This document shows, piece by piece, positions 4,818-64,000 of a stretch of DNA of 64,000 nt (its first letter is position 1; each line of letters begins with the position of its first letter). The notes under the pieces are model-generated. The model was not told the DNA's origin. It was given only the letters and a program-made list of their open reading frames with translations, and made no database searches. Both the position numbers and the translations under genes were made by a program. Origin of the DNA: Anaerolineae bacterium (GTDB taxonomy: Bacteria; Chloroflexota; Anaerolineae; B4-G1; DUEL01); the NCBI GenBank assembly GCA_036172315.1, contig JASFBC010000093.1:27108-91107 (forward strand), written 5' to 3'.

Positions 4818-5012
4818 ATGGAAAAGCGGAAGATTCTCCGTATCACCCTGGTTCGCAGCCCAATCGGGTATTCCAGAGACCAGAAGGCGACCGTCCGGGC
4901 GCTGGGTCTGCGCCGTCTCCATCAGACGGTGGAGAAGGCCGACACGCCGACCATCCGGGGGATGGTGGCTAAGGTCCAGCATATGTTGAAGGTGGAAGAG
5001 GTTGAGGGATGA
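4818..5012 (+). CDS. rpmD: 50S ribosomal protein L30
   Basis: L30 motif [13 protein letters not shown]...[13 protein letters not shown] 4818 has RBS GGGAGAGG; the ORF track begins at an in-frame TTG at 4797. Confidence 0.88.
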
Positions 5013-5488
5013 AACTGCACGATTTGCAGCCGGCTGAGGGTTCTAAGAAGCGCCGCAAACGGAAGGGCATCGGCATCGCGGCCGGTCAGGGGAAGACCGG
5101 CGGGCGCGGGACAAAGGGGCAGAAGGCCCGCAGTGGAGGAAGCATCCCACCGTACTTTGAGGGCGGGCAGTTGCCGCTGGTCCGCAAACTCCCCTTCGCG
5201 CGGGGCGTCGGTTTCCGGAATCCCTGGCGGGCCCGTTTCACACCGGTCAACGTGGACCGGCTGGCCCAGTTCGCGCCGGGGAGCGTGGTGACTCCAGAGG
5301 AACTGGCGGATGCCGGCCTGATTCGGGACCCCGATGAGTGGGTGGTCATCCTGGGGCGCGGGGAGTTGGACATCCCGCTGACGGTAAAGGCCCATCGTTT
5401 CTCCGCCAGCGCGCGGGCCAAGATTGAGGCCGCTGGCGGCACTGTGGAAGAGTTGCCCTGGGAGCGGGGCGGCTACCGGACGCGGTAA
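5009..5488 (+). CDS. rplO: 50S ribosomal protein L15
   Basis: Gly/Arg-rich N-terminal region [16 protein letters not shown] is typical L15; the start overlaps the rpmD stop. Confidence 0.93.
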
Positions 5489-5514
5489 GCGATCCGCGAT
5501 AAGCGAGGTAAGCG

Positions 5515-6834
5515 ATGATCCAGGCCGTACGTGATGCCCTGAGGCTTCCCGACCTGAGACGGCGGCTGTTCTACACGCTGCTGATTCTGGTTATCTTTCG
5601 CGTAGCCTCTCACGTGCCGGTGCCGGGCATTGACCGGGAGGCTCTGCGCAGCCTGACCGGTGGGGCGGCCCAACTGGTCAACATTCTGGACCTGCTCTCT
5701 GGCGGCGCAGTAGCGGAATACTCGGTGCTGGCAAACGGGGTCTATCCGTACATCAACGCATCCATCATTATCCAGTTGCTGGTTCCGGTCATCCCGGCGC
5801 TGAAACGGCTGGCAGAGGAGGAAGGGGAAGCCGGACGACGGAAACTGAACCAGTGGACGTACTACCTGACCATTCCACTGGGGATGTTGCAGGCCTGGGG
5901 TCAGGCCCAGTTGTTCAACAGCGCGGCCGCGCGCCCGATCCTGCCCAACTTCGGCTTCCATCGGCCGGAGTTCATCCTGCCTACCATCTCGGTCCTGGTG
6001 GCCATGACGGCGGGCACGATGTTTGCCATCTGGCTGGGTGAGTTGATCTCCGAACAGGGCATTGGTAACGGTCTTTCGCTCATCATCTTCGGCGGCATCG
6101 TGGCCCGGACGCCGGCCAACGTGGCGCGGATTTACACTACGGATGGTCTCCTGGGCATTCTCTTTTTCCTGATCATCACCGCGCTGGTGGTCTTCGTTAT
6201 CGTCTATGTCCAGGAGGGAGAGCGGCGCATTCCGGTGCAGTACGGCAAGCGGGTACGGGGCCGGCGGATGTACGGCGGCGGCAGCACCTACATCCCGCTG
6301 CGGGTCAATATGGCCGGGATGATCCCGCTCATCTTTGCCCAGTCTCTGCTCACTCTGCCTGCGGTCATTGCCCAGTTCTTCGCCAATTCGTCCAACGTGA
6401 ACGTGGCGAGGGTGGCAGCGGATATTATGAACTTCTTCAGCGGGCACACAGTGGAGTGGTATACCACTCTCTTCTACGCGGTGCTCTACTTTGCTGCTGT
6501 CGTCGGCTTCACATACTTCTACACCTTCGTTCTGGTAGAGCAGCAGAACTTGCCGGAGAATCTGCAGAAATACGGCGGGTTCATCCCGGGTATCCGTCCC
6601 GGCAAGCAGACGGCAGACTACATTAATGGGATCTACAAGCGCATCACTCTGTTCGGGGCTCTGTTCCTGGGCGGTGTCGCCGTCCTGCCCTTTATTGTTC
6701 AGTTGGTGATGAACACCCGGGTGCTGCTCATCACCTCTGCGGGACTGCTCATCGTTGTCGGCGTCGTGGTGGATACGATGCGGCAACTGGAGGCCCAGTT
6801 GCTGATGCGGCATTATGAGGGATTCATCCGATGA
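5515..6834 (+). CDS. secY: Preprotein translocase subunit SecY
   Basis: A 439-aa polytopic membrane protein with SecY motifs (LRRRLFYTL, GGIVARTP) at the conserved position after rplO. Confidence 0.95.
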   Translation: MIQAVRDALRLPDLRRRLFYTLLILVIFRVASHVPVPGIDREALRSLTGGAAQLVNILDLLSGGAVAEYSVLANGVYPYINASIIIQLLVPVIPALKRLAEEEGEAGRRKLNQWTYYLTIPLGMLQAWGQAQLFNSAAARPILPNFGFHRPEFILPTISVLVAMTAGTMFAIWLGELISEQGIGNGLSLIIFGGIVARTPANVARIYTTDGLLGILFFLIITALVVFVIVYVQEGERRIPVQYGKRVRGRRMYGGGSTYIPLRVNMAGMIPLIFAQSLLTLPAVIAQFFANSSNVNVARVAADIMNFFSGHTVEWYTTLFYAVLYFAAVVGFTYFYTFVLVEQQNLPENLQKYGGFIPGIRPGKQTADYINGIYKRITLFGALFLGGVAVLPFIVQLVMNTRVLLITSAGLLIVVGVVVDTMRQLEAQLLMRHYEGFIR

Positions 6835-8753: not shown

Positions 8754-8867
8754 GTGAAAGTTTCACCTTCGGTCAAACGGCGCTGTCCCAAATGCAAAAT
8801 CATCCGTCGTAAAGGGGTGATTCGGGTCATCTGCGAGAACCCGAAGCACAAACAGCGACAGGGCTAA
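8754..8867 (+). CDS. rpmJ: 50S ribosomal protein L36
   Basis: Translates to [37 protein letters not shown] with a GTG start and RBS AGGAGGA 6 nt upstream. It is absent from the ORF track because it is shorter than the track cutoff. No infA lies between map and rpmJ. Confidence 0.92.
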
Positions 8868-8898
8868 TTCACGCTTCACGCATTCTATCGGAGGAGGT

Positions 8899-39545: not shown

Positions 39546-39647
39546 CCAGATGAATCTCCGCCTGGACGACAGACCACCGACCCCTGTCGTCTGGGGTCTG
39601 CGGTCTATGGTCTGGGGCAAATCCTGTTTCTGAAAGAGGTCAACGCT

Positions 39648-40226
39648 ATGTACATCGGATGGAATATCCTCAAAGCGCTCTGGATTACCTTCCGTCGGTT
39701 CGTGGAGTCGTATATAGACGACCTCAAGTGGCTTTTCAAAAAGGGCTTCGGGAAACGGTATACGCCGGAGACGCTGCCCATTCGTCAACACCCTCTGACC
39801 AAACGGGGCATTTTCACGGTCCAATATCCGGCGGAGCGGCTGCCGCTGCCGGAGCGCTTCCGGGGCTTCCCCTTCCTGGTCTACGACGACGAGACTGGGA
39901 AACTCCGCTGTACGGCCTGCGGGACCTGCGCGCGGGTCTGCCCGCCCCAGTGCATCTGGATTGTCCGCGCCACGGACCCCCAAACCGGCAAGCCGTTACG
40001 GGAACCGGCGGAGTTTTATGTGGACATCAGTATCTGCATGAACTGCGGCTTCTGCGCCGAATTCTGCCCCTTCAACGCGATCAAGATGGGGCATGAGGTG
40101 GAAATTGCGGCTTTTGGCCGGGCGGATTTACTGTGGAACGCGGAGAAATTGCGTCGCCCGCTCTCTTATCATGCGCAGATCCATCCGAACGATTACGCGC
40201 AGGAGCGGGGTGGGAAAGGGGAATAG
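39648..40226 (+). CDS. nuoI: NADH-quinone oxidoreductase subunit I (2x[4Fe-4S])
   Basis: CTACGTCARVCP and CMNCGFCAEFCP. Confidence 0.9.
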   Translation: MYIGWNILKALWITFRRFVESYIDDLKWLFKKGFGKRYTPETLPIRQHPLTKRGIFTVQYPAERLPLPERFRGFPFLVYDDETGKLRCTACGTCARVCPPQCIWIVRATDPQTGKPLREPAEFYVDISICMNCGFCAEFCPFNAIKMGHEVEIAAFGRADLLWNAEKLRRPLSYHAQIHPNDYAQERGGKGE

Positions 40227-43022: not shown

Positions 43023-43180
43023 CGGGGCCTCCTGGGTGGACTACGGATGACGGACGACCGACGATGGACGATGGGCGACGCCATTATATGCCGCTGTTCC
43101 GGTCATATCAACACGAGTCCTCCGTGGTCTGTGGTCATTTGACAATCCCCTCCTCCCGTGTTATACTCTCCTGTGCGCGA

Positions 43181-53872: not shown

Positions 53873-54045
53873 GTAACTATTCAGCCCGATGGAGATCGCC
53901 CTCTTGGCGCCGATTGGAAATCGGCCTCCCCTGGGCGCTTTCGCGCCGGGCGTCAACCTCCGTTGACGCCCTGGGAGGACGGCGCAGGCCGTCCAGAGGC
54001 CGCAGGCCCAGGGAGGCGGACTTTCCGTCAGCGTTGAATAGTTAC
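53873..54045. repeat. MITE-like intergenic repeat, full-length copy C with terminal inverted repeats
   Basis: GTAACTATTCAGC...GCGTTGAATAGTTAC termini. The interior is rich in palindromes (GTCAACCTCCGTTGAC, GGCGCTTTCGCGCC, GGACGGCGCAGGCCGTCC). Confidence 0.8.
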
Positions 54046-55709
54046 AAATTTTCCATCGCGCCGCTGATTTCGCGGAGCAGTTCCTCGTCGGTGAAGGCGC
54101 CCTTCTGAAGCAGGGCCTGGATGTGGCCGCTGAGCCGGGCCCGCTCATTGGGCGTGAGTTCTTTGGCCGTGACGACAATGACCGGAATATCCCGCAATTC
54201 CTCGTCGGCGTTGAGCACCTCCAGCACCCCGAAGCCGTCCACCTCCGGCATCATCAGGTCCAGCAGGATGAGGTCGGGGCGCTCCTGGCGGATGAGTTCC
54301 AGTCCCTCCCGGCCGTTCTCGGCCTCCAGAATCTGGTAGGGGCCCCGGACCTGGAGGATGCGCCGGAGGAGGCGGCGGGCGCCCGGGTCGTCCTCCAGGA
54401 TGGCCACGCGACGGACGTCCCGACCCAGTGACTCCAGCGACCCCAGCAGTCCCTCCTCCGGGGCCGGCGCGCGGGCAGGCGCCTCCACCGTCTGCACCCA
54501 GTCTTCTCCCAGCAGGTGTTTCTCCACCGGGAAGGTGTGGCCGGAGCAGTTGACGACGATCACCTCGTCCCGCCGGATGACCCCTTTGCTGAGCAGTTGG
54601 AAAAGGCCGGCGAAAGCAATGCCCGCCGCCGGCTCCATGGAGATACCCTCCAGTTTCGCCAGAACATGGATGGCGCGGAAGGCCTTTTCGTCGCTGACCA
54701 TTTCAAAGGCGCCGCCATGCTCCCGGATCACCCGGGCCAGGAAGGTATAAGCCGGGCCGGGGTCACCGGTCGCGACGGTGATAATGCGGGTGCGGGGATT
54801 GAGGACCGGCTCCGCTTTCTCCAGCCCCTTTTTGAAGGAGTGGACCATCGGGGCGCACCCTTCGGCCTGGACGCAGGCCAGGCGGGGCATGCGGTCTATC
54901 AGGCCCATGCGCAACAGTTCCTCAAACCCCTTCCAGACTCCGACCGGCCCCAGCCCGCCGCTGACGGCCTGGATATACCAGTCCGGCGCGCGCCAGGGGG
55001 TGGTGGGGCCGGGGCCCAGGTGCGCGGCCAGTTGTTCGGCGATCTCAAAGGCTACCGTCTTCATGCTCTCCCGCGCGGCGATGGAGCGGATGCCCCGGTC
55101 CAGATAGAGCCCCCGCCGCTTCGCAAATTCCGCCGCCACCTGCTTGGTCTGGTCGTAGGTGCCGGTGACCTTGACGACTTTGGCGCCGTAGATGGCGACC
55201 TCGCGCATCTTCTCCGCCGGGACCAGGCTGGTGAGGAAGGTCCAGATTTTAATGCCCGCCAGGGCGGAGTAGGCGGCGTAGGAGATGGCGACATTGCCGG
55301 TGGAAGCCAGAACCGCCTCAGTGACTCCCAGTTCTTTCATCACGGAAACCGCCAGGGCGGCCTGCCGGTCCTTGAAGGAGCCGGTCGGCCCCTGCCGTTC
55401 GTCCTTGATGTAGAGATGGGAGCATCCCAGCATCATCCCCAGGTTGACGGCCCGCAGGAGAGGGGTGCCTCCCTCGCCCATGCTGAGCCGGTGGGCATCA
55501 TTCCGGAGGGGAAGGAGTTCCCGGTAGCGCCACATCGTCTGGGGACGGCGGGGCATTTCCCGCTGCCAGATACGGGCCACGCTCGGGTAGTCATAGATAA
55601 CGTCCAGCCAGTCCCCATCGCACTGCGGGCAGCGCTCCAGGGGACGGGTGAACGGCTCATGGTAGCCACAGCGAGTGCATTGCAGGTACGGGTACTGGTG
55701 AGTATCCAT
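54042..55709 (-). CDS. Threonine-synthase-like PLP enzyme (N-terminal zinc ribbon) fused to a C-terminal response-regulator receiver domain
   Basis: Zn ribbon CTRCG...CPQCDG. PLP-lysine motif GPTGSFKDRQ. C-terminal ~125 aa is a complete REC (ILEDDP; LILLDLMMPEVDG; VVTAK). The ORF is continuous with no internal start; RBS GGGGAGAGAG lies before ATG 55709. Confidence 0.8.
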   Translation of the reverse strand: MDTHQYPYLQCTRCGYHEPFTRPLERCPQCDGDWLDVIYDYPSVARIWQREMPRRPQTMWRYRELLPLRNDAHRLSMGEGGTPLLRAVNLGMMLGCSHLYIKDERQGPTGSFKDRQAALAVSVMKELGVTEAVLASTGNVAISYAAYSALAGIKIWTFLTSLVPAEKMREVAIYGAKVVKVTGTYDQTKQVAAEFAKRRGLYLDRGIRSIAARESMKTVAFEIAEQLAAHLGPGPTTPWRAPDWYIQAVSGGLGPVGVWKGFEELLRMGLIDRMPRLACVQAEGCAPMVHSFKKGLEKAEPVLNPRTRIITVATGDPGPAYTFLARVIREHGGAFEMVSDEKAFRAIHVLAKLEGISMEPAAGIAFAGLFQLLSKGVIRRDEVIVVNCSGHTFPVEKHLLGEDWVQTVEAPARAPAPEEGLLGSLESLGRDVRRVAILEDDPGARRLLRRILQVRGPYQILEAENGREGLELIRQERPDLILLDLMMPEVDGFGVLEVLNADEELRDIPVIVVTAKELTPNERARLSGHIQALLQKGAFTDEELLREISGAMENL

Positions 55710-55813
55710 CTCTCTCCCCTGGGGGCGGGGCGGATTCTCATTCTGCGAAGCCCCTTCGGGGGTTGGATAGCCCGAAGGGTTTTGCCGCTTGAGCCCGCCG
55801 CTTGAGTGGTTCA

Positions 55814-58800
55814 TTATCCCTCCCCAGACCCTTCGGGCCACCCCCTCCTCTTTTCAGATTGAGGGTCTGGAGAGGGAGGGGAAAGGGGGGTGAGGGAGTC
55901 CGGTTTTCGGACAACTTCCAGGAGCGGCAGCCAGACGGTGCAGCGGGTGCCCTTCCCTACCTCGCTTTCCACCGCAATCCGCCCACCGTGACGGTCCAGC
56001 ATCTCTTTGACAATGGAGAGGCCCAGGCCGGTGCCAGGAATCTGCATCTGGCGCGGCCGCTCCCCCCGGAAGAAGCGGTCAAAAATATAGGGCAGTTCAT
56101 CTTTGGGAATGCCGATGCCGGTATCGGCGACGGTGACCGTTGCCCAGCGATGTCCCTCTCGTTCCCCCTCTCCGGTGCTCACCTCCACCCGTCCGCCTGA
56201 AGGGGTGTGCTGAATGGCGTTGCGGATCAGGTTGTTCAGCACCATGCGGAGCGCGTCGGGGTCGGCACGGGCAACCGGTTCCTCCTCCGCCAGGTGGCAC
56301 TCCAGCACCAGCCCCTGGGCCAGCGCCAGGGGCCGCTGCGCGTCCACCACCTCTGCTACCAGAGCGTTGAGCCCCACCGGGCCGAACTGCATCCGGGTAG
56401 CCCCGGAATCCAGCCGGGAAATTTCCAGCACATCCTCCACCAGGCGGGCCTGCCACTCCACCTCCCGCTCCATAATCTCCAGATATTCGGGGAGCAGTTC
56501 GGGCGTCCTCCGCAGGAGGTGGAGATAGGTCTTGATGGTCGTAAGGGGGGTGCGCAATTCGTGGGAGATATTGGAGATGAACCGGACGCGCAGCCGCTCC
56601 AGCGTCTTGTACTGGGTTACATCATGGAGGACAACGACGACCGCCGTTTCCCCCTCAATTCCTTCAATCGGGGACGCCCGGACTTCCAGGTCCAGCCCCG
56701 GCAATTCCACCACCTCCTCGGGCCGCTCCCGGGCTTTTCGGGCTACCCGCCGAACCGCTTCCTCCAGCCGCTGGGCGTCCTCGGGGGAGAGGTCCCGGGT
56801 CAGCCATCCCTGGACGACCGGGTTGGCCTGGAGAATCTCCCCCTGAGAGTCGGCCAGGATGATGCCGTCGCCGGTGCTGCGCAGGACGGCCTCCAATCGG
56901 GCGTACTGGGCCGCCAGTTGCGCCGTCCGCTCCCGCACCTGCTCCTCCAGCGTCCCGGCATAGCGGCGCAGTTCGGTGTAGAGGTGGGCGTTCTCCAGCG
57001 CGATGGCGACATGGTCGGCGAACGCTCTCAGCCGGGCCGCGTCGGCAGAGGTGAACTGGTGGGGGCGGGTGCCGTCCACGTTCAGGAAGCCCACGGTGAT
57101 CCCCCGGACAACGATCGGCGCGGCCACATAGGAGCGAATCCAATCCAGCCCCTCCAGCCGGACCCAGAGGGGGTCGGCATGGGTATCGGGGATAAGCAGC
57201 GGATCACCGGTCCGGGCCATTCTCTGAAGGGTAGGGATCTCCATCACCGGAAACCCCAGAGAGGCAACCCGTTCTTCTGCTCCGAACTGTTCGTATCCCC
57301 GTCCGCCTGCAATGCGGGCGATGCCGTCTTCTATCAACATTACATTGAAGGCATCGCCAGGCACCACCCGCGCCACCTGCTCCAGAATGTGCTCCAGCAC
57401 CTGGGTCGGGTCCAGGGTGCGGGTGATCACAGCGGCCGCCTCCGCCAGCGCCTGGGCCAGTTCCCGCTGCTCCCGTTCGGCCCGGTAGAGCCGCTCGTTC
57501 TCTATCGCCCTGGCCAGCGCGTCGGCCACCTGCTGGAGGAGAGGAACCTGCCCGTGGCGGAAGTTCCGCTCCCGGGTGCTGACGACGTGGAGGGCGCCGA
57601 TGACCTGCATGCCCACCCGCAGCGGCAGGCTCACATAGGAGCGAAAGCCCGCCTTGTAGAGAGCCTGAATAGCCGCGTACTCCTTCTCGGCGCTCATATC
57701 GGGGCAAAAACGGGGCCGGCCCTCCAGCAGGTCGTCCCAGACCGGGGTGGTGGAGAGAGGGAGGAGGGTGCCTTCCTCCAGGATGGGGAAGGGGGTCTCC
57801 AGGACAGCGATGCGGTAATGGGTCCTATCTTCCAGAAGCGCCACGGCAACCCGGTCGCAGCCGGTGAGGATACACAGGCCATGGACCAGGACGCGGAAGG
57901 CCTGGCGGACCTCCAGGGTGTTCAGCGCGGTGGCGATGAGCGCCAGGATCTCCTCTTCCTGCGCCCGACGGTGCTCCTCCTCATAGAGGCGGGCGTTCTC
58001 CAGCGCTACCGCCACCTGGTCCGCCAGCGCGCGCAGGAACTCCATGTCCACTCCCCGGAACGCGTCCACCTGCGGGCTCTGGAGGTCCAGGTTGCCCAGG
58101 ACCCGGTCGCCCCGCAGGAGTGGGATCACCAGTTCGGAGCGGGTAGTGGGGATCAGCGGGAAATAGTCCGGATCCTGCCGGACGTCGGGGACGTAGCAGG
58201 TCATACGGGTGCGGTAGGCGCGAGAATGGATGCCCTCCGTCAGGCTGAGGGGCTGGGTGAGGGCCCGCTCCCGCTCCTGGGGGGAATAACCGCGCAGGGA
58301 GCGGCGCTCAAAGACCCCCCGCTCCGGGTCGGGCACCAGGACCGAGCCGTGGGTGGCGCCGGTGGCCCGTACCGCCTCTTCGGTCAGCCGGTCCAGGATG
58401 GCCTCCGTATCCAGGGTGGAGTTGACGACCTGGCCGATACGGTAGAGGGCCTCCTGACGCTCCCGGGCGGCCCGCTCCTGTTCATAGAGGCGAGCGTTCT
58501 CTATGACCGCGGCCGCGTCCGCGGCCAGCGTCTGGCAGAGGCGGATTTCGGCCTCGGCGAACGCTCGCTCCTGGCGGCTCTCGCAAAGAGCGACGAAGCC
58601 GATAGCGCGATCGCGCACCACCAGGGGGACAACCAGTTGGGATTTCCAGCCGTACCGCTCCACCTCCGCCCGGTCGCCCGCATTCAGGTAGCCGCCGGCC
58701 TGGAGAACCAGAGGCCGCCGCTCCCGGAGCGCACGAACCACTCTCGGATGGAGGCTCAGGTCAAAGGTCTGGCCTATATCGGTGAGGGCCGCTGCCCGTT

Positions 58801-61800
58801 CTTTTTCCGATGCCTGGGGGCCAAACCACCCCTTCACTTCGGTAGCGGTATGGGTCGCCTCATCCCAGAGGCTGATGTAGACGCTGGTGACATCCAGCGC
58901 CTGGCCGATTTGCTGGGCCAGCGCTTCCAGCGCGGCGTCCAGTTCCCGCTGGGAGGAAATGGTGACGGCGGCCTGATAAAGGAAGGCCATCTCTTCGGCT
59001 CGCCGCTGCTGGGCCTGATAGAGTTGGGCGTTCGTGATGGCGGCGGCGATGTGGCCCGCCAGAGTCTCCATCACGGCCACGTCCAGCGGGGTAAAGGCAC
59101 CCCGGCGTGCGCTCTGGAGAGTGAGCACACCCACCAGCCGCCCGTGATACTTCAGGGGGACATCCAGTTCGGCGCGAGTCCCGGTGAGATACGGAGCGAT
59201 GGAGCGGGGCTCCTGGCTCACGTCGTTGGCCAGGAGCGTCTTGCCGGTCCGGGCTACCCAGCCGATCATCCCCTCGCCGACCTTCTGGCGGAAGCCCGGA
59301 GGGGTGAGGCCGGCCCAGATTCCCGCCCCGGCGACGAACTCCAGTTCCCCCGCCGCCTCGTCCAGAAGCATCAGGCCAACGTAGTCGTAGCCGAAAGCCC
59401 GGACGATGCCCTCCACCGCCTCCTGCCAGACCGCCTCCGGCTCCAGGATGGCGGCCAGCCGTTCCCCCAGTTCGGCTACGGCGGCCATGCGGCGGGCCCG
59501 CTCCCGTTCGTCCTCATAGAGGCGGGCGCCGGCCAGAGCCCCGGCGATGATCACTCCGGCGGCCTCCGCCAGGTGAGTGTGGTCGGGGGTGAAGGCGGCC
59601 CTCTGCGCGCTTCCCAGGCTCATCACGCCGACCAGTTCCTCCCCAAAGCGGAGAGGAATGCTGAGAGCGGAGCGGACATGCTCGTCCACCCCCTGAAATA
59701 CCAGCCAGCGGTCGTCCTGAAGCACGTCATCTACCACGGCGGTCCGGCGGTGGAGGGCGACCCAGCCGGCCAGCCCTTTCCCGACGGTCAGTTGCAGGCG
59801 ACGGTCCAGGCTTTCCGCTTCCCTATCGCCGGGGCCGGTGGCAGCGATGAGCCGCAGGCGGGGGGTGCCCGGTTCAGCCACAAAGACGACTCCCTGCTGG
59901 GCTCCGGTCATCCCGCAGAGGGCTTCCAGGGCCTCCTGGGCGATAGCCCGCGCGTCCAGGGTTCCGGCCAGCCGCTGCCCCAGGCGGTGGAGGAAATCCA
60001 GTTGCTCCCGCTCCTGCCGGAGGGTCTCGTAGAGGCGGGCGTTGGAGAGGGCGATGGCGGCCTGGGCCGCGAAGAGGTCCAGCAGGTCGGCGTCCTCCTG
60101 GGAGAAGGTGCGGGGCGGGTCGGCCAGGACGATGAGGACGCCCAGTATCTCCTCTCCCCGCCGCACCGGCACGCCGATGACCGCTGTCCAGGGGTAACCG
60201 GCGTACTGCGCCGGACGGTCCTCCTGCTGCGAATAGTTATCCACCCAGAAGGGGCGGCCCGTCTTCCAGACCCGGCGGGTAATCACGCCCTCGGAGGGCC
60301 GCAAGCGGGTTCCGACGGGGGGTTGATTGGGGCCGACGGAGACGACCCACTCCAGAGCATCCTCCTCCGGCCGGTAGAGGTAGAGGCCCCCGCCGCTTCC
60401 GCCCACCAGGTCCACCGCCCGCCGGACGATGGAGGATAGGAGGGCATCCAGGTCCAGCCGTGCAAAGAGTTCTAATCCGACCTGGCGGAGGGCTTCTATC
60501 TGCTCGGCCCGGCGGCGGACGGCCTCCTCGGCCCGCACCCGATCGGTGAGGTCCACGATGGAGCACAGGATGGCCGGGCGGCCCCGGTAGTCCACGCGGG
60601 TGCCCAGCACCTCGCAGGGGAAACGGGAGCCGTCCTTGCGCAATCCCTGGATGGTGTAGTGGACGCTCATCACTTCGCCATTCGGCCGTTTCCGGATGTT
60701 CTCCGCTACCCGCTCCCGATCTTCGGGGGCCACCACATCCAGAGGCCCCAGCCGGTCTATCAGTTCTTCCGGCTCATAGCCGAACATATGGGCGCCGGCG
60801 GGGTTCACATACCGGAGCAGGCCGTCCTGGATCAGGTAGACGCCGGTCAGTGCGTGTTCGGCCAGGAGGCGGAAGCGCTCCTCGCTCTCCCGCCGCGCCT
60901 CCTCCTGCTCCAGGGAATGGAAGGCGAAGGCCAGGTCTTCAGCGATCTCGCTCAGGAGTTTTTGCTCTTCGGGGGACGGGGTGAGATCGGGGGATAGCGC
61001 GATGCCGAGGAAGCCGTAAGTCCGCCCGCCGTGGGCCATGCGGACGACCATTGCGGCGGCGCCCCGGTAGGTCAGGCGGACGGGGCAATCCGGACAGGCC
61101 TCCGGTTCGGGGATGATGAGCGGTTCGGACATTGTCAGGGCCTGGCGGGCGCAGGTGGGGAGTCGGCCTTCGCCCCAGGCCTTCAGCAGCGCGGGGAAGC
61201 CCGTCCCGATGGGCCCGGCGGCGGCCCCGGAGAGAGCCCGGCCGGCCTCGTCGGTGAGAACGGCCCAGGCTCCGAGGTAGTCGCGCGTGCGAACCAGTTC
61301 GTCGCAGGCGATCCGGATAAGGCACTCCCTATCTTTTTCTCGGGTAGTGGCCTGATTGATGTTGCGGATGGCCCGCAGGACGGCGTTGAGGCGGGTCAGT
61401 TCCTCTTCCCTTTGTCCCAGTGCATCCAGCGTCTCGTTGAAAGCCCGGGCCAGGTCGGCCAGTTCGTCCCGGCCGCGCAGGGTAACCCGGCCTCCGGGCT
61501 CGCCCCTGGCGCCGATGGCCCGGACCTGCGCGGCCAGCGCGGCCAGCCGGACCAGGATGTCCCGGTCCAGGAGCAGGAGGACCGCCAGGGTAACCAGGAG
61601 GCCGAGGGCGACCACTGTGCCGATGAGGTAACGGAAAGCCAGCAGGCCGCGCGCGTAAGTTTCCCGGGGGCCCTCGGTCCGCAGGACCAGCGCCGGGCGG
61701 CCGTAGAGGTCCGTCAGCAGCCCATATCCGGCGATGCGAGCCCCGTCCAGCGGTTGGGCCCGGACGGGGGTCTGGGGGGAGAGGTGGGGGTAGATGACTC

Positions 61801-62443
61801 GCAGGTCCTCAGGCCACTCCTCGGAGCGGTCAGCCCGGTGGGCGGTGACGGAGAGGTCCAGGCGCTGGCTCATCCAGTCCAGGAGGTCGGCGTTCAGATA
61901 GCGGCCGAAGACGAGAACACCGCGCGCAGGGCCCCGGTCCTCGGAGGTCAGGATGGGGCGCGCAGTCACCAGGAGGACGCCCTCGGGCAGCAGGAGCAGG
62001 CCGCGCAGCCCCTCTTCGGGGACGCGAGTCAGGACCGGCAGCGCGTCGTAAATCTCCCGGGGGACCGGTGCCTCCTCTGCGGCCTTCAGGTCGTAGGCCC
62101 GGGCCAGGACCACCCGGCCGGAGGCGTGGACGAAGAGCATCAGGTTGAGGTGGGTGTTCAGGAAAGTCTCATCGGTGATGTTGGAGCGGATGTACGCGGG
62201 ATTGACGTCCTCTATGAAGGCGTACGTATCGTCCCAGGAGGCCCAGTCGTGGTTGAGGGTGTCTATAGGCCGCAGTTCGTCCTCCAGGAAAGCCCGGACG
62301 CGGTGGGCATCGTGCTCTGTATCCCGGAGTTCGGCCTCCGCAAAGGCACGCAGGAGGGTCCGGGAGAAGAGCAGGCCCAGCAGCGCCACCAGGAAGACAA
62401 TGGTCAGACCTACAGTCAGTAGAGTACGGGTTCGGAGGGACAT
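55814..62443 (-). CDS. Giant sensor histidine kinase (TM-CHASE4-TM-HAMP, multiple GAF/PAS, HisKA-HATPase), 2209 aa
   Basis: N-terminal TM plus CHASE4-like periplasmic block; repeated GAF/PAS segments. H-box ISHELRTPLTTI; G2 GTGLGLSIVKEM. Confidence 0.85.
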   Translation of the reverse strand: MSLRTRTLLTVGLTIVFLVALLGLLFSRTLLRAFAEAELRDTEHDAHRVRAFLEDELRPIDTLNHDWASWDDTYAFIEDVNPAYIRSNITDETFLNTHLNLMLFVHASGRVVLARAYDLKAAEEAPVPREIYDALPVLTRVPEEGLRGLLLLPEGVLLVTARPILTSEDRGPARGVLVFGRYLNADLLDWMSQRLDLSVTAHRADRSEEWPEDLRVIYPHLSPQTPVRAQPLDGARIAGYGLLTDLYGRPALVLRTEGPRETYARGLLAFRYLIGTVVALGLLVTLAVLLLLDRDILVRLAALAAQVRAIGARGEPGGRVTLRGRDELADLARAFNETLDALGQREEELTRLNAVLRAIRNINQATTREKDRECLIRIACDELVRTRDYLGAWAVLTDEAGRALSGAAAGPIGTGFPALLKAWGEGRLPTCARQALTMSEPLIIPEPEACPDCPVRLTYRGAAAMVVRMAHGGRTYGFLGIALSPDLTPSPEEQKLLSEIAEDLAFAFHSLEQEEARRESEERFRLLAEHALTGVYLIQDGLLRYVNPAGAHMFGYEPEELIDRLGPLDVVAPEDRERVAENIRKRPNGEVMSVHYTIQGLRKDGSRFPCEVLGTRVDYRGRPAILCSIVDLTDRVRAEEAVRRRAEQIEALRQVGLELFARLDLDALLSSIVRRAVDLVGGSGGGLYLYRPEEDALEWVVSVGPNQPPVGTRLRPSEGVITRRVWKTGRPFWVDNYSQQEDRPAQYAGYPWTAVIGVPVRRGEEILGVLIVLADPPRTFSQEDADLLDLFAAQAAIALSNARLYETLRQEREQLDFLHRLGQRLAGTLDARAIAQEALEALCGMTGAQQGVVFVAEPGTPRLRLIAATGPGDREAESLDRRLQLTVGKGLAGWVALHRRTAVVDDVLQDDRWLVFQGVDEHVRSALSIPLRFGEELVGVMSLGSAQRAAFTPDHTHLAEAAGVIIAGALAGARLYEDERERARRMAAVAELGERLAAILEPEAVWQEAVEGIVRAFGYDYVGLMLLDEAAGELEFVAGAGIWAGLTPPGFRQKVGEGMIGWVARTGKTLLANDVSQEPRSIAPYLTGTRAELDVPLKYHGRLVGVLTLQSARRGAFTPLDVAVMETLAGHIAAAITNAQLYQAQQRRAEEMAFLYQAAVTISSQRELDAALEALAQQIGQALDVTSVYISLWDEATHTATEVKGWFGPQASEKERAAALTDIGQTFDLSLHPRVVRALRERRPLVLQAGGYLNAGDRAEVERYGWKSQLVVPLVVRDRAIGFVALCESRQERAFAEAEIRLCQTLAADAAAVIENARLYEQERAARERQEALYRIGQVVNSTLDTEAILDRLTEEAVRATGATHGSVLVPDPERGVFERRSLRGYSPQERERALTQPLSLTEGIHSRAYRTRMTCYVPDVRQDPDYFPLIPTTRSELVIPLLRGDRVLGNLDLQSPQVDAFRGVDMEFLRALADQVAVALENARLYEEEHRRAQEEEILALIATALNTLEVRQAFRVLVHGLCILTGCDRVAVALLEDRTHYRIAVLETPFPILEEGTLLPLSTTPVWDDLLEGRPRFCPDMSAEKEYAAIQALYKAGFRSYVSLPLRVGMQVIGALHVVSTRERNFRHGQVPLLQQVADALARAIENERLYRAEREQRELAQALAEAAAVITRTLDPTQVLEHILEQVARVVPGDAFNVMLIEDGIARIAGGRGYEQFGAEERVASLGFPVMEIPTLQRMARTGDPLLIPDTHADPLWVRLEGLDWIRSYVAAPIVVRGITVGFLNVDGTRPHQFTSADAARLRAFADHVAIALENAHLYTELRRYAGTLEEQVRERTAQLAAQYARLEAVLRSTGDGIILADSQGEILQANPVVQGWLTRDLSPEDAQRLEEAVRRVARKARERPEEVVELPGLDLEVRASPIEGIEGETAVVVVLHDVTQYKTLERLRVRFISNISHELRTPLTTIKTYLHLLRRTPELLPEYLEIMEREVEWQARLVEDVLEISRLDSGATRMQFGPVGLNALVAEVVDAQRPLALAQGLVLECHLAEEEPVARADPDALRMVLNNLIRNAIQHTPSGGRVEVSTGEGEREGHRWATVTVADTGIGIPKDELPYIFDRFFRGERPRQMQIPGTGLGLSIVKEMLDRHGGRIAVESEVGKGTRCTVWLPLLEVVRKPDSLTPLSPPSPDPQSEKRRGWPEGSGEG

Positions 62444-62452
62444 TTTTCAGAG

Positions 62453-62543
62453 CGTGAAACGTGAAACGTGAAAAGTGAAAAGTGAAACGTGAAAAGTGAA
62501 ACGTGAAAAGTGAAAAGTGAAAAGTGAAACGGGAGACGGGAAA
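62453..62543. repeat. Tandem heptanucleotide repeat (NGTGAAA)x11 plus 2 degenerate units, immediately 5' of the giant kinase start
   Basis: CGTGAAA/AGTGAAA units are perfectly phased from 62453 to 62529, then CGGGAGA and CGGGAAA. They fill the whole dtd-to-kinase spacer; there is no SD before ATG 62443. Confidence 0.9.
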
Positions 62544-62546
62544 GGG

Positions 62547-62984
62547 CTATCGTTCCAGCAGGATGGTCACCGGACCGTCGTTGTGGATTTCCACCAGCAT
62601 GTGGGCGCCGAAAATGCCGGTTCGGACGGGGACGCCGACGGCGGCCAGTTCTTCGGCGAAGCGGCGCACCAGGGGCTCCGCCACCTCCGGCGGGGCGGCA
62701 TCGGTGAAGGAGGGGCGGCGGCCTTTGCGGGCGTCGGCGTAGAGGGTGAACTGGGAAACGACCAGCGCCTGGCCACCCACATCCAGGAGGCTGGCGTTCA
62801 TTTTGCCGCCGGCGTCCTCAAAGATGCGCAGGCCGGCCACCTTCTGGGCCAGCCAGCGGGCCTCTTCCTCCGTGTCGGTATGGGTCACCCCCACCAGCAC
62901 CACCACCCCCGGGCCGATGGCCGCGACGGTCTCCTCACCCACCGACACCCTCGCCGCCTGCACTCGCTGAACAACGACACGCAT
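62547..62984 (-). CDS. dtd: D-aminoacyl-tRNA deacylase
   Basis: MRVVVQRV...SQFTLYAD...GIFGAHM; RBS GGGGAG lies before ATG 62984. Confidence 0.9.
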
Positions 62985-63041
62985 CGTTTTACTCCCCTCA
63001 ATCAATGTGCCAAGGCGCTTGGGGAAGTGCCTGGTATGTGC

Positions 63042-64000
63042 CTACGGCAACCCCACCGCCGCTTTCACTTCGGCGATGGTCCGGGTGGCGATCGCAGAAG
63101 CCCGGCGGGCTCCCTCGGCCAGAATGTCCCATATGGTATCCGGGTTGGCCGCCAGCGCGGCCCGTCGCTCCCGAAACGGGGCGAAGTATTCGGTCAGATT
63201 GCGGGCAAAGATTCTCTTGCAATCCACGCAGCCAATGCGGGCGGTCCGGCAGTCAGCATCAATCTGGGCCACTTCGTTGGGGGAGAAGAACCGGTGCAGG
63301 GAAAAGACGTTGCAGACTTCGGGCCGTCCAGGGATGTGGCGGTGGGTCCGCTGCGGGTCGGTGACCATCTGCATCACTCGCTGGTGAATCTCCTCCGGCG
63401 AGGCGGCGATCTCAATGTGGTTGTTCAGGGACTTGCTCATCTTCTGCTGGCCGTCAATCCCCAGGACTTTGGGGAAATCGGTGTGTTTCGCCTGGGGTTC
63501 CACCAGCACAGGGCCGAAGTGGGCGTTGAACCGCCGGACAATCTCCCGGGTAAACTCCAGATGGGGAGCCTGGTCCACGCCGACGGGGACCGTATCAGCC
63601 TTATAGAGGGTGATGTCCGCCGCCATCAGCACCGGATAGCCCACCAGCCCGTAGTTGACGTTATCCGGTTGCTGGCGGACTTTCTCCTTAAAGGTGGGCA
63701 GGCGGGTCAGCCATCCCAGCGGGGTGACCATAGATAGGATGGTGTGCAGTTCGGTCACCTGAGGGACATGGGACTGGACGAAGAGGATGGTCCCCCGCTC
63801 CGGGTCCACTCCTGCGGCCAGCCAGTCCAGGACCATTTCATACGTCCATTCCCGCAGGTATTCGGTATCCCTCAGGGTGGTCAGTGCGTGAAGGTCCACG
63901 ACGCAGTAGATGCAATCGTAGTCGTCCTGAAGGGCAACGTAGTTGCGGATGGCACCCAGGTAGTTGCCCAGGTGCTGCCGACCTGTCGGTCGGGCGCCGG
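63042..64000 (-). CDS. trpS: Tryptophan--tRNA ligase (5' end runs off the window)
   Basis: KMSKS motif. Upstream in-frame translation continues (HLGNYLGAIRNYVALQDDYDCIYCVVDLHALT) to the window edge. Confidence 0.88.
   Translation of the reverse strand, partial: GARPTGRQHLGNYLGAIRNYVALQDDYDCIYCVVDLHALTTLRDTEYLREWTYEMVLDWLAAGVDPERGTILFVQSHVPQVTELHTILSMVTPLGWLTRLPTFKEKVRQQPDNVNYGLVGYPVLMAADITLYKADTVPVGVDQAPHLEFTREIVRRFNAHFGPVLVEPQAKHTDFPKVLGIDGQQKMSKSLNNHIEIAASPEEIHQRVMQMVTDPQRTHRHIPGRPEVCNVFSLHRFFSPNEVAQIDADCRTARIGCVDCKRIFARNLTEYFAPFRERRAALAANPDTIWDILAEGARRASAIATRTIAEVKAAVGLP

Follow-up and report, generated by a model that had tools for sequence, protein, structure and literature searches.

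A heptanucleotide repeat array between dtd and a giant sensor kinase gene in an Anaerolineae bacterium, probably a slippage-generated microsatellite

The window analyzed here is a 64,000-nucleotide (64-kb) stretch of DNA from an Anaerolineae bacterium. It contains a single array of TTTCACN heptanucleotides, located between dtd and the gene for a 2,209-aa sensor histidine kinase. The array is probably a simple sequence repeat (SSR) made and resized by slippage, not a conserved cis-regulatory site. Any effect on the kinase would probably be passive and depend on its length. This reading draws on the anatomy of the array, the missing structure and consensus signals, the turnover of orthologous spacers, the prevalence of period 7, and the finding that such arrays are not specific to one sequence. 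The array adds to the fast-changing seven-base microsatellites known from many bacteria, and nothing marks it as dedicated to switching or to the binding of a specific factor.

The array contains 11 perfect NGTGAAA units at an exact 7-bp phase, at positions 62453 to 62529 of the window (plus strand). The order of N on this strand is C,C,C,A,A,C,A,C,A,A,A. The coding strand is the minus strand, on which the array reads (TTTCACN)x11 and N along transcription is T,T,T,G,T,G,T,T,G,G,G. Two degenerate heptads, CGGGAGA and CGGGAAA, at 62530 to 62543 (plus strand) close the 13-unit array. The minus-strand layout is the dtd stop codon TAG (62549 to 62547), CCC, TTTCCCG, TCTCCCG, (TTTCACN)x11, CTCTGAAAA, and the kinase ATG at 62443. 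The CCC and the two decayed units form a degenerate 5' edge (62530 to 62546, minus strand). The array is polar on the coding strand, with a degenerate 5' end and a sharp 3' end, and variant units at the corresponding end are also found in arrays of other genomes. The 9-nt linker CTCTGAAAA (62444 to 62452, minus strand) is A-rich, joins the last heptad to the ATG, and has no Shine-Dalgarno (SD) core. The same position in orthologs is likewise A-rich and lacks an SD.

Tandem Repeats Finder (TRF) scored the array 119 at period 7 (13.0 copies, 89% match) and 135 at periods 14 and 21. The next-best tandem repeats of the window scored far below it. The pattern GTGAAANGTGAAA has 10 overlapping matches in the window against 0.10 expected, all of them inside the array, and none of 100 shuffles reached this count. 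The sequence, TRF, and the pattern count together bear out the 11 perfect and two degenerate heptads, in the order originally listed. Outside the array the window has 26 GTGAAA hexamers, against about 14 expected, and the idea that they form a dispersed regulator motif was rejected.

The array is intergenic. It runs from the dtd stop to the kinase ATG and has no start codon on the coding strand inside it. It takes up 91 of the 103 nt of the spacer, in agreement with the earlier estimate of about 90, and 9 nt separate it from the ATG. The spacer contains A15 C34 G8 T46 on the sense strand, or 78% pyrimidine, 33% C, and 8% G. Its GC content is 41%, versus 0.58 to 0.70 across the window. The original prediction spoke of an AT-rich microsatellite in a 66% GC genome; the window itself averages about 64% GC.

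The kinase gene (55814 to 62443, minus strand) encodes a protein with the domain order CHASE4-HAMP-PAS-GAFx7-HisKA-HATPase_c by domain matches. An in-frame stop upstream leaves no start earlier than the ATG at 62443, and the N-terminus of the protein, MSLRTRTLLT, is kept in orthologs. The upstream cistron, dtd (62547 to 62984, minus strand), encodes a 145-aa D-Tyr-tRNA deacylase (Tyr_Deacylase match) and is preceded by the SD sequence GAGGGGAG. These domain matches support the flanking genes named in the original prediction. Upstream of dtd is a trpS/tyrS-type class I tRNA synthetase gene (tRNA-synt_1b match; 63042 to 64000, minus strand) that runs past the end of the window. The order trpS-dtd-kinase is kept in relatives. 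On the other side, a gene at 54042 to 55841 (minus strand) overlaps the 3' end of the kinase gene by 28 nt. Domain matches identify its product as a PALP (PLP-dependent enzyme) with a C-terminal receiver. The receiver is the likely phospho-acceptor, and the fusion would be an unusual enzymatic output for the giant kinase. The fusion does not contain a DNA-binding domain, which weakens the case for autoregulation by a neighboring regulator.

The array appears in two independent assemblies. A contig from the Logan short-read assembly of SRR24425660 (locus L121) is identical at the dtd end, continues through the first 3.9 units, and stops within the repeat. The shared sequence, which covers these 3.9 units and not the full count of 11, indicates that the array is real and not an artefact of one assembly. 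The end of the contig shows that the repeat also breaks assemblies. An assembly artefact, which the original prediction had named as an outcome that would count against it, or a mis-collapsed repeat is very improbable. Short-read assemblers do break at the repeat, as the end of the Logan contig illustrates, but the two assemblies give the same junction on the dtd side and the same initial units. The 91-bp array is also shorter than a read, its interspersion of C and A units is nontrivial, and homologous arrays are present in related genomes.

Orthologous loci were gathered by a search with the kinase N-terminus (Anaerolineae or Thermoflexia MAGs) and by a degenerate pattern for the dtd 3' end (metagenome contigs). 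Their spacers differ in both heptad unit and copy number. The spacer of L125 is 284 to 285 nt long, and its 3' end is (TTTCACG)x3-TTTTCTGGAA-ATG, so that the array stops 10 nt before the ATG. The spacers of L159, L164, and L165 contain another heptad, (AATGACC), in seven, seven, and three copies, respectively. In these three loci the AATGACC array is followed by three CTACC-type units, the last of which ends about 8 nt before the ATG. At least seven orthologous loci (L122, L123, L160, L161, L163, L169, and L170) have heptad-free spacers. In L122, L123, L160, L161, and L163 the spacer is a GC-rich palindrome. L169, the closest relative by kinase (83%), and L170 have other spacer types again. 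In L124 another gene lies upstream, and there is no spacer. The flanking coding DNA is 92 to 97% identical between the palindrome and AATGACC types and 80 to 92% identical between the window and all other loci.

L122 (140 to 1016) and L123 (2391 to 3267) carry a pair of MNT/HepT type (NTP_transf_2 plus HepT-like) between trpS and dtd. The relatives with this insert have the GC-rich palindrome spacer, and the window does not have the pair.

A second heptad SSR, (GGGAGTA)n, is found about 4.6 kb away in the clade of the relatives. It has 4.3, 6.4, and 10.4 copies between identical flanks (L159, 643 to 672; L160, 830 to 874; L166, 8977 to 9049). Together with the differences among the orthologous spacers, these copy-number differences indicate fast turnover of heptad units and copy numbers in the lineage. 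The (GGGAGTA)n array is bordered immediately by a hairpin/T-run terminator-like element on one side and by GGAG-ATG on the other. It is the sole sequence there for a promoter or leader, and it brings SD-like GGGAG words.

At the level of sequence, copy number has evolved between species. The original prediction had proposed slipped-strand expression variation and had suggested looking for length polymorphism among relatives. The polymorphism was found between species at the orthologous spacer, with 11 (plus two degenerate) or three TTTCACN units, with seven, seven, and three AATGACC units, or with none. What stands of the proposal is a slippage-prone SSR that changes over evolutionary time. 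All of the variation lies between species or MAGs with flanks 80 to 97% identical, and dtd is alone in its protein cluster.

A contingency locus, in which heptads would be added and lost often and reversibly inside one population and so switch or grade kinase expression, is unlikely. The array is well placed for such a role, since it lies 9 nt upstream of the ATG, where unit number could affect the gene, and occupies the SD position. Copy number also differs among orthologs and at the second SSR of the clade, and there is a precedent in a heptameric 5'-UTR SSR with expression inverse to length (PMC12721329). Yet the variation seen is that between species. There is no hmw-like hairpin with a complementary G-rich arm, and the spacer contains no promoter consensus whose spacing could shift. 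The gene encodes a cytoplasmic-membrane sensor kinase of a free-living, thermophile-type lineage and not a surface antigen. Heptad SSRs are also found in housekeeping spacers (rplO-secY and rpmJ-rpsM).

Local signals were sparse around the array. An Rfam search over 61000 to 64000 at a permissive E-value returned chance-level matches only. A scan of 62000 to 63200 found no sigma-70-like promoter and no intrinsic-terminator-like site. No SD core (GGAG, GAGG, or AGGA) was found upstream of the kinase ATG, as the original prediction had noted. An SD-like core is present in only about 40 to 55% of the window genes by a crude count, and its absence from the kinase gene is unexceptional because about half of the genes lack one.

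The mRNA from -137 to +60 has a predicted minimum free energy of -25.9 kcal/mol. Shuffled sequences gave -33.9 +/- 3.7 kcal/mol (z = +2.16), and 198 of 200 shuffles folded at least as well as the real segment. No inverted partner array was found within 1.1 kb; the best inverted match was 19 nt at 74%, 511 nt away. The weak fold, the composition, and the missing partner describe a lone, unstructured, G-poor direct repeat.

The same composition raises a further possibility. Rho-utilization (rut) sites are C-rich, G-poor, unstructured stretches. The spacer is an unstructured stretch of about 100 nt with 33% C and 8% G, and it might recruit Rho so that fewer transcripts continue into the kinase gene. 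We consider a rut-like site improbable. The argument for it is compositional, and orthologs with a GC-rich palindrome or other spacers do not have such a composition.

Period 7 dominates the tandem repeats of the lineage. Thermoflexia-like loci totaling 76.5 kb contain 0, 4, 11, 2, and 1 perfect arrays with 2.5 or more copies at periods 5, 6, 7, 8, and 9, respectively. Across all retrieved loci, TRF found 254 period-7 arrays (at least four copies and at least 85% match), and every other period had 15 or fewer. Well over 100 of the 254 have unrelated unit sequences. Period 7 leads in every listed genome with GTGAAAN arrays, including Bacteroidota, Chloroflexota, Proteobacteria, and viral contigs. 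Other heptad units in the lineage or the window are GGGAGTA, AATGACC, CGTCAGT, GTCTGGG, GGACGAC, and GCGATAA.

Three more short, degenerate heptad runs are found in spacers of the window. The run at 5486 to 5514 (GCGGTAA GCGATCC GCGATAA GCGAGGTAA GCG) makes up the whole 26-nt spacer between rplO (5009 to 5488) and secY (5515 to 6834). It begins at the rplO stop codon and finishes at the secY ATG. The run at 39589 to 39617 is an imperfect (GTCTGGG)x4 that lies 30 nt upstream of an ATG at 39648. The run at 43038 to 43080 is an imperfect (GGACGAC)x6 that lies 16 nt upstream of the start of a 908-aa gene (43022, minus strand). This gene retains an AGGAGG SD. The spacer between rpmJ and rpsM, in a ribosomal-protein operon, contains (TTCACGC)x2 at 8872 to 8885. 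rpmJ has a GTG start at 8754 with the first codons GTGAAAGTTTCAC, and the rpsM ATG is at about 8900. The palindrome GTGAAAGTTTCAC at 8754 to 8766 was considered as a regulator site and rejected, as it is the GTG start of rpmJ.

The GTGAAAN unit is not confined to this lineage. (GTGAAAN)x4 was found in at least 120 genome loci from many phyla, with one genome per species. The matches listed include Bacteroidota, Chloroflexota, Proteobacteria, Verrucomicrobia, and others. Those from Chloroflexota include a Thermoflexus MAG and an Anaerolineae MAG, and the latter contains an 11-unit array of mixed C and A units 1 nt upstream of a response-regulator gene. The longest array among the matches listed has up to 44 units (Methylotuvimicrobium). 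L027 (Methylotuvimicrobium sp. KM1) and L051 (Methylomicrobium sp. wino1) contain (GTGAAAG)x44 and (GTGAAAG)x25 at apparently equivalent positions. A second heptad array is close by in each, (GAATAGA)x9 and (TGAATAG)x5.6.

Viral contigs contain (GTGAAAN)x4 at 33 loci. Four control heptads of the same composition, also as four units, were found at 17, 18, 20, and at least 120 viral loci. GTGAAAN is therefore not a privileged heptad in these contigs, and that candidate was rejected. The control with at least 120 loci is (GATGAAN)x4; the four other heptads of this composition have 17 to 33. IMG/VR contigs L133, L148, L134, L126, L139, and L151 contain many different heptad arrays at high density, with seven in 10.7 kb of L133.

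Among the loci listed, the arrays have no strand bias with respect to genes. The counts of TTTCAC-sense versus GTGAAA-sense arrays were 35:35 at gene starts and 42:39 at gene ends. They come from loci below 56% GC in which ORFs were called crudely, and they are confounded because one strand of the unit contains both GTG and TGA and the other is stop-free. No functional theme was found among the genes downstream of TTTCAC-sense arrays in the loci listed. These genes encode a response regulator, ThiG, an HslU-like AAA protein, ETF-alpha, an aminotransferase, a PurH-like protein, DnaJ, and LigA. The gap from a TTTCAC-sense array to the start of an essential gene is 1 nt in L004, 6 nt in L012, 5 nt in L020, 7 nt in L091, and 8 nt in L118, which leaves no room for an SD.

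The arrays of the loci listed are polar. The TTTCAC-3' end abuts genes, with gaps of 10 nt or less on the stop side in 28 of 42 cases and of 30 nt or less on the start side in 13 of 35. At the opposite end the neighboring gene is typically 40 to 120 nt away, and the array often passes gradually into variant or decayed units. This polarity is partly confounded by the TGA and GTG within the unit.

Some arrays of other genomes have a recognizable setting. In L003, L005, L021, L035, L060, L075, L101, and L106, (GTGAAAN)n starts 0 to 10 nt from a stop codon, and some stop-proximal arrays provide the TGA of the gene itself. A stop-proximal (GTGAAAN)n, a short loop, and an inverted (NTTTCAC)n make a long heptad hairpin with a terminator-like or REP-like look. 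The window array is not part of an inverted hairpin pair, unlike many of the arrays that abut stops. In the Prevotella/Bacteroidales loci L022, L038, L039, L041, L074, L085, L110, and L116, (TTTTCAC)x4 lies directly upstream of a T-run and GTA(C/T)CTTTGCA, closely similar from locus to locus. This element matches the Bacteroidota TAnnTTTG -7 promoter box, and the arrays occupy the upstream part of what would be a conserved promoter.

The original prediction had offered an iterated binding site for a specific regulator as its alternative. The heptads could be a DNA operator for an RHH-type protein or sites of about 7 nt in RNA for the OB-fold proteins Csp or S1. The pSM19035 omega (RHH) repressor binds contiguous 7-bp heptads of the form WATCACW. 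The 11 contiguous heptads of the window share TCAC with this heptad. The array also overlaps the usual place of the SD, its RNA is predicted to be single-stranded, and TTTCAC-sense arrays abut SD-less starts in several genomes. CspB is described as binding one protein per heptamer (PMC4679880). The alternative is nevertheless unlikely, and a sequence-specific operator is unlikely in particular. Orthologous spacers carry TTTCACN, AATGACC, or nothing, so that the unit is not conserved with the kinase gene. GTGAAAN arrays lie beside unrelated genes in many phyla, are divided 35 to 35 by strand, and are no commoner than control heptads. The window has only the one TTTCACN array. No DNA-binding gene was found among the neighbors examined, and none of the four (trpS, dtd, kinase, and PALP-receiver) encodes an RHH protein; the receiver next to the kinase is part of a fusion with a PLP enzyme.

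The turnover of orthologous spacers, the prevalence of heptads in the lineage, and the lack of strand bias, gene theme, or excess over controls point instead to a slippage-generated SSR of a known type. Strand slippage during replication would make and resize the array in the intercistronic spacer, which is presumably co-transcribed with dtd. In the mRNA the array would form a pyrimidine-rich, G-poor, unstructured leader that has no SD and ends 9 nt before the ATG. It would space the kinase start from dtd, and it may give a single-stranded landing region for SD-independent (S1-type) initiation. Gain or loss of 7-nt units could then tune kinase expression over evolutionary time and would not act as a reversible switch.

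The main hint that the array is more than a microsatellite is its position. Three lineages have heptads of two different units in the same spacer, always ending about 8 to 10 nt before the start codon, and this hints at selection at that position. The arrays set tightly before essential genes in other genomes and the oriented TAACTGA heptamers of Beggiatoaceae also weigh against the slippage reading. A bolder reading, to which we give only a slim chance, is that start-proximal heptad arrays are widespread SD-independent leaders. Their 7-nt register would match the footprint of OB-fold proteins (Csp/S1), and slippage-driven unit number would be a heritable rheostat. Such a class may take in the window array and the (AATGACC)n and (GGGAGTA)n arrays of its relatives. 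In other phyla it may include the arrays before dnaJ, ligA, hslU-like, thiG, and response-regulator genes. If true, it would explain the dominance of period 7 among the long SSRs of bacteria.

Whichever way the position is read, the array documents heptanucleotide SSRs in Thermoflexia-like Chloroflexota, with turnover of both copy number and unit at orthologous sites. Arrays of the GTGAAAN unit recur across many phyla and viral contigs. The dtd-kinase spacer is a natural series with 0, 3, and 11 units of one heptad and 3 and 7 of another before one conserved start codon. It suits questions that have stood since 2007, namely whether start-proximal heptads tune translation and why the period is 7. 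There is also a consequence for annotation. Such arrays break short-read assemblies, and their internal GTG and TGA create spurious ORF boundaries.

The closest known systems are the long SSRs (LSSRs) of Mrazek (5- to 11-nt class) and the short tandemly repeated repetitive (STRR) sequences of Calothrix PCC 7601 and Nostoc/Anabaena. The AATGACC unit of the relatives is TTGGTCA when rotated on the other strand, which is probably one of the Calothrix STRR units. Mrazek, Guo & Shah 2007, as summarized in PMC4679880 and PMC4692102, ranked heptanucleotide repeats first in abundance among the long SSRs of most genomes and proposed polymerase slippage favored by a 7-nt contact. The STRRs of cyanobacteria are intergenic, have 7-bp units, and are of no known function (PMC2670836, PMC4692102). 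The window array shares with these systems perfect head-to-tail 7-nt units, longer than chance, in a non-coding, intergenic location. Also shared are the excess of period 7 over 5, 6, 8, and 9, with many units per genome, which was found in related loci and in 64 kb of the source genome. The rapid turnover between relatives is shared as well, with copy number and presence differing between related genomes (11 versus 3; 7, 7, and 3; absent from at least seven). Neither Thermoflexia-like Chloroflexota nor the TTTCACN unit features in the LSSR/STRR literature compared here.

Most TAACTGA heptamers of marine Beggiatoaceae stand only one or a few nt before start codons that have no SD (MacGregor 2015, PMC4679880). 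They are also found in ribosomal-protein operons, and binding of S1, Csp, or CsrA has been proposed (PMC4679880). Immediately before such codons they are strongly biased toward the forward orientation (PMC4679880). At least some heptad families are therefore probably functional at the RNA level. The window shares with them heptads in ribosomal-protein operon spacers, the neighborhood of a multisensor kinase, and the lack of a theme among downstream genes. The array is likewise in forward orientation near a start without an SD, with a gap of 9 nt. The differences lie in the unit and its distribution. BOGUAY has 169 sets of two to six TAACTGA copies with strong orientation bias, and the window has one long TTTCACN array (11 plus two units) in 64 kb, of a unit that is split 35 to 35 by strand across genomes.

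The Xanthomonas GGGAATC repeats vary extensively in length and sequence between close relatives (Rehm 2015, PMC4692102). These and the Nostoc GGGGA(C/T)T repeats resemble the window array in that the heptads lie in spacers of matching gene pairs across related species and vary extensively there. Some form inverted hairpin pairs, as do GTGAAAN arrays of other genomes. Their units are G-rich and capable of forming G-quadruplexes, in contrast to the window array, which is G-poor on the sense strand and unstructured.

Reversible expression-setting repeats include (AGAT)n of Moraxella catarrhalis uspA2. The (ATCTTTC)n array in the 5' UTR of Haemophilus influenzae hmw is a proven phase-variable heptamer that acts through a long hairpin and RNase III (PMC12721329). 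The window array shares with hmw1A and hmw2A a pyrimidine-rich heptamer leader, typically of at least 11 units, with length steps of 7 nt. The hmw genes encode surface adhesins of a host-adapted pathogen, and their population switching has been demonstrated experimentally. The window array does not contain the long hairpin with its G-rich arm.

The omega operators have seven to 10 contiguous 7-bp units with a TCAC core, and TCAC is the only part that TTTCACN matches. The window locus differs from them in being chromosomal and intercistronic, with no RHH gene among trpS, dtd, the kinase gene, and PALP-receiver. An operator would be conserved with its regulated gene, but the orthologous spacers contain other heptads or none. 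Across these systems, the array agrees with the LSSRs in every feature examined. It is like the TAACTGA heptamers in its position and missing SD and unlike them in its unit and orientation bias.
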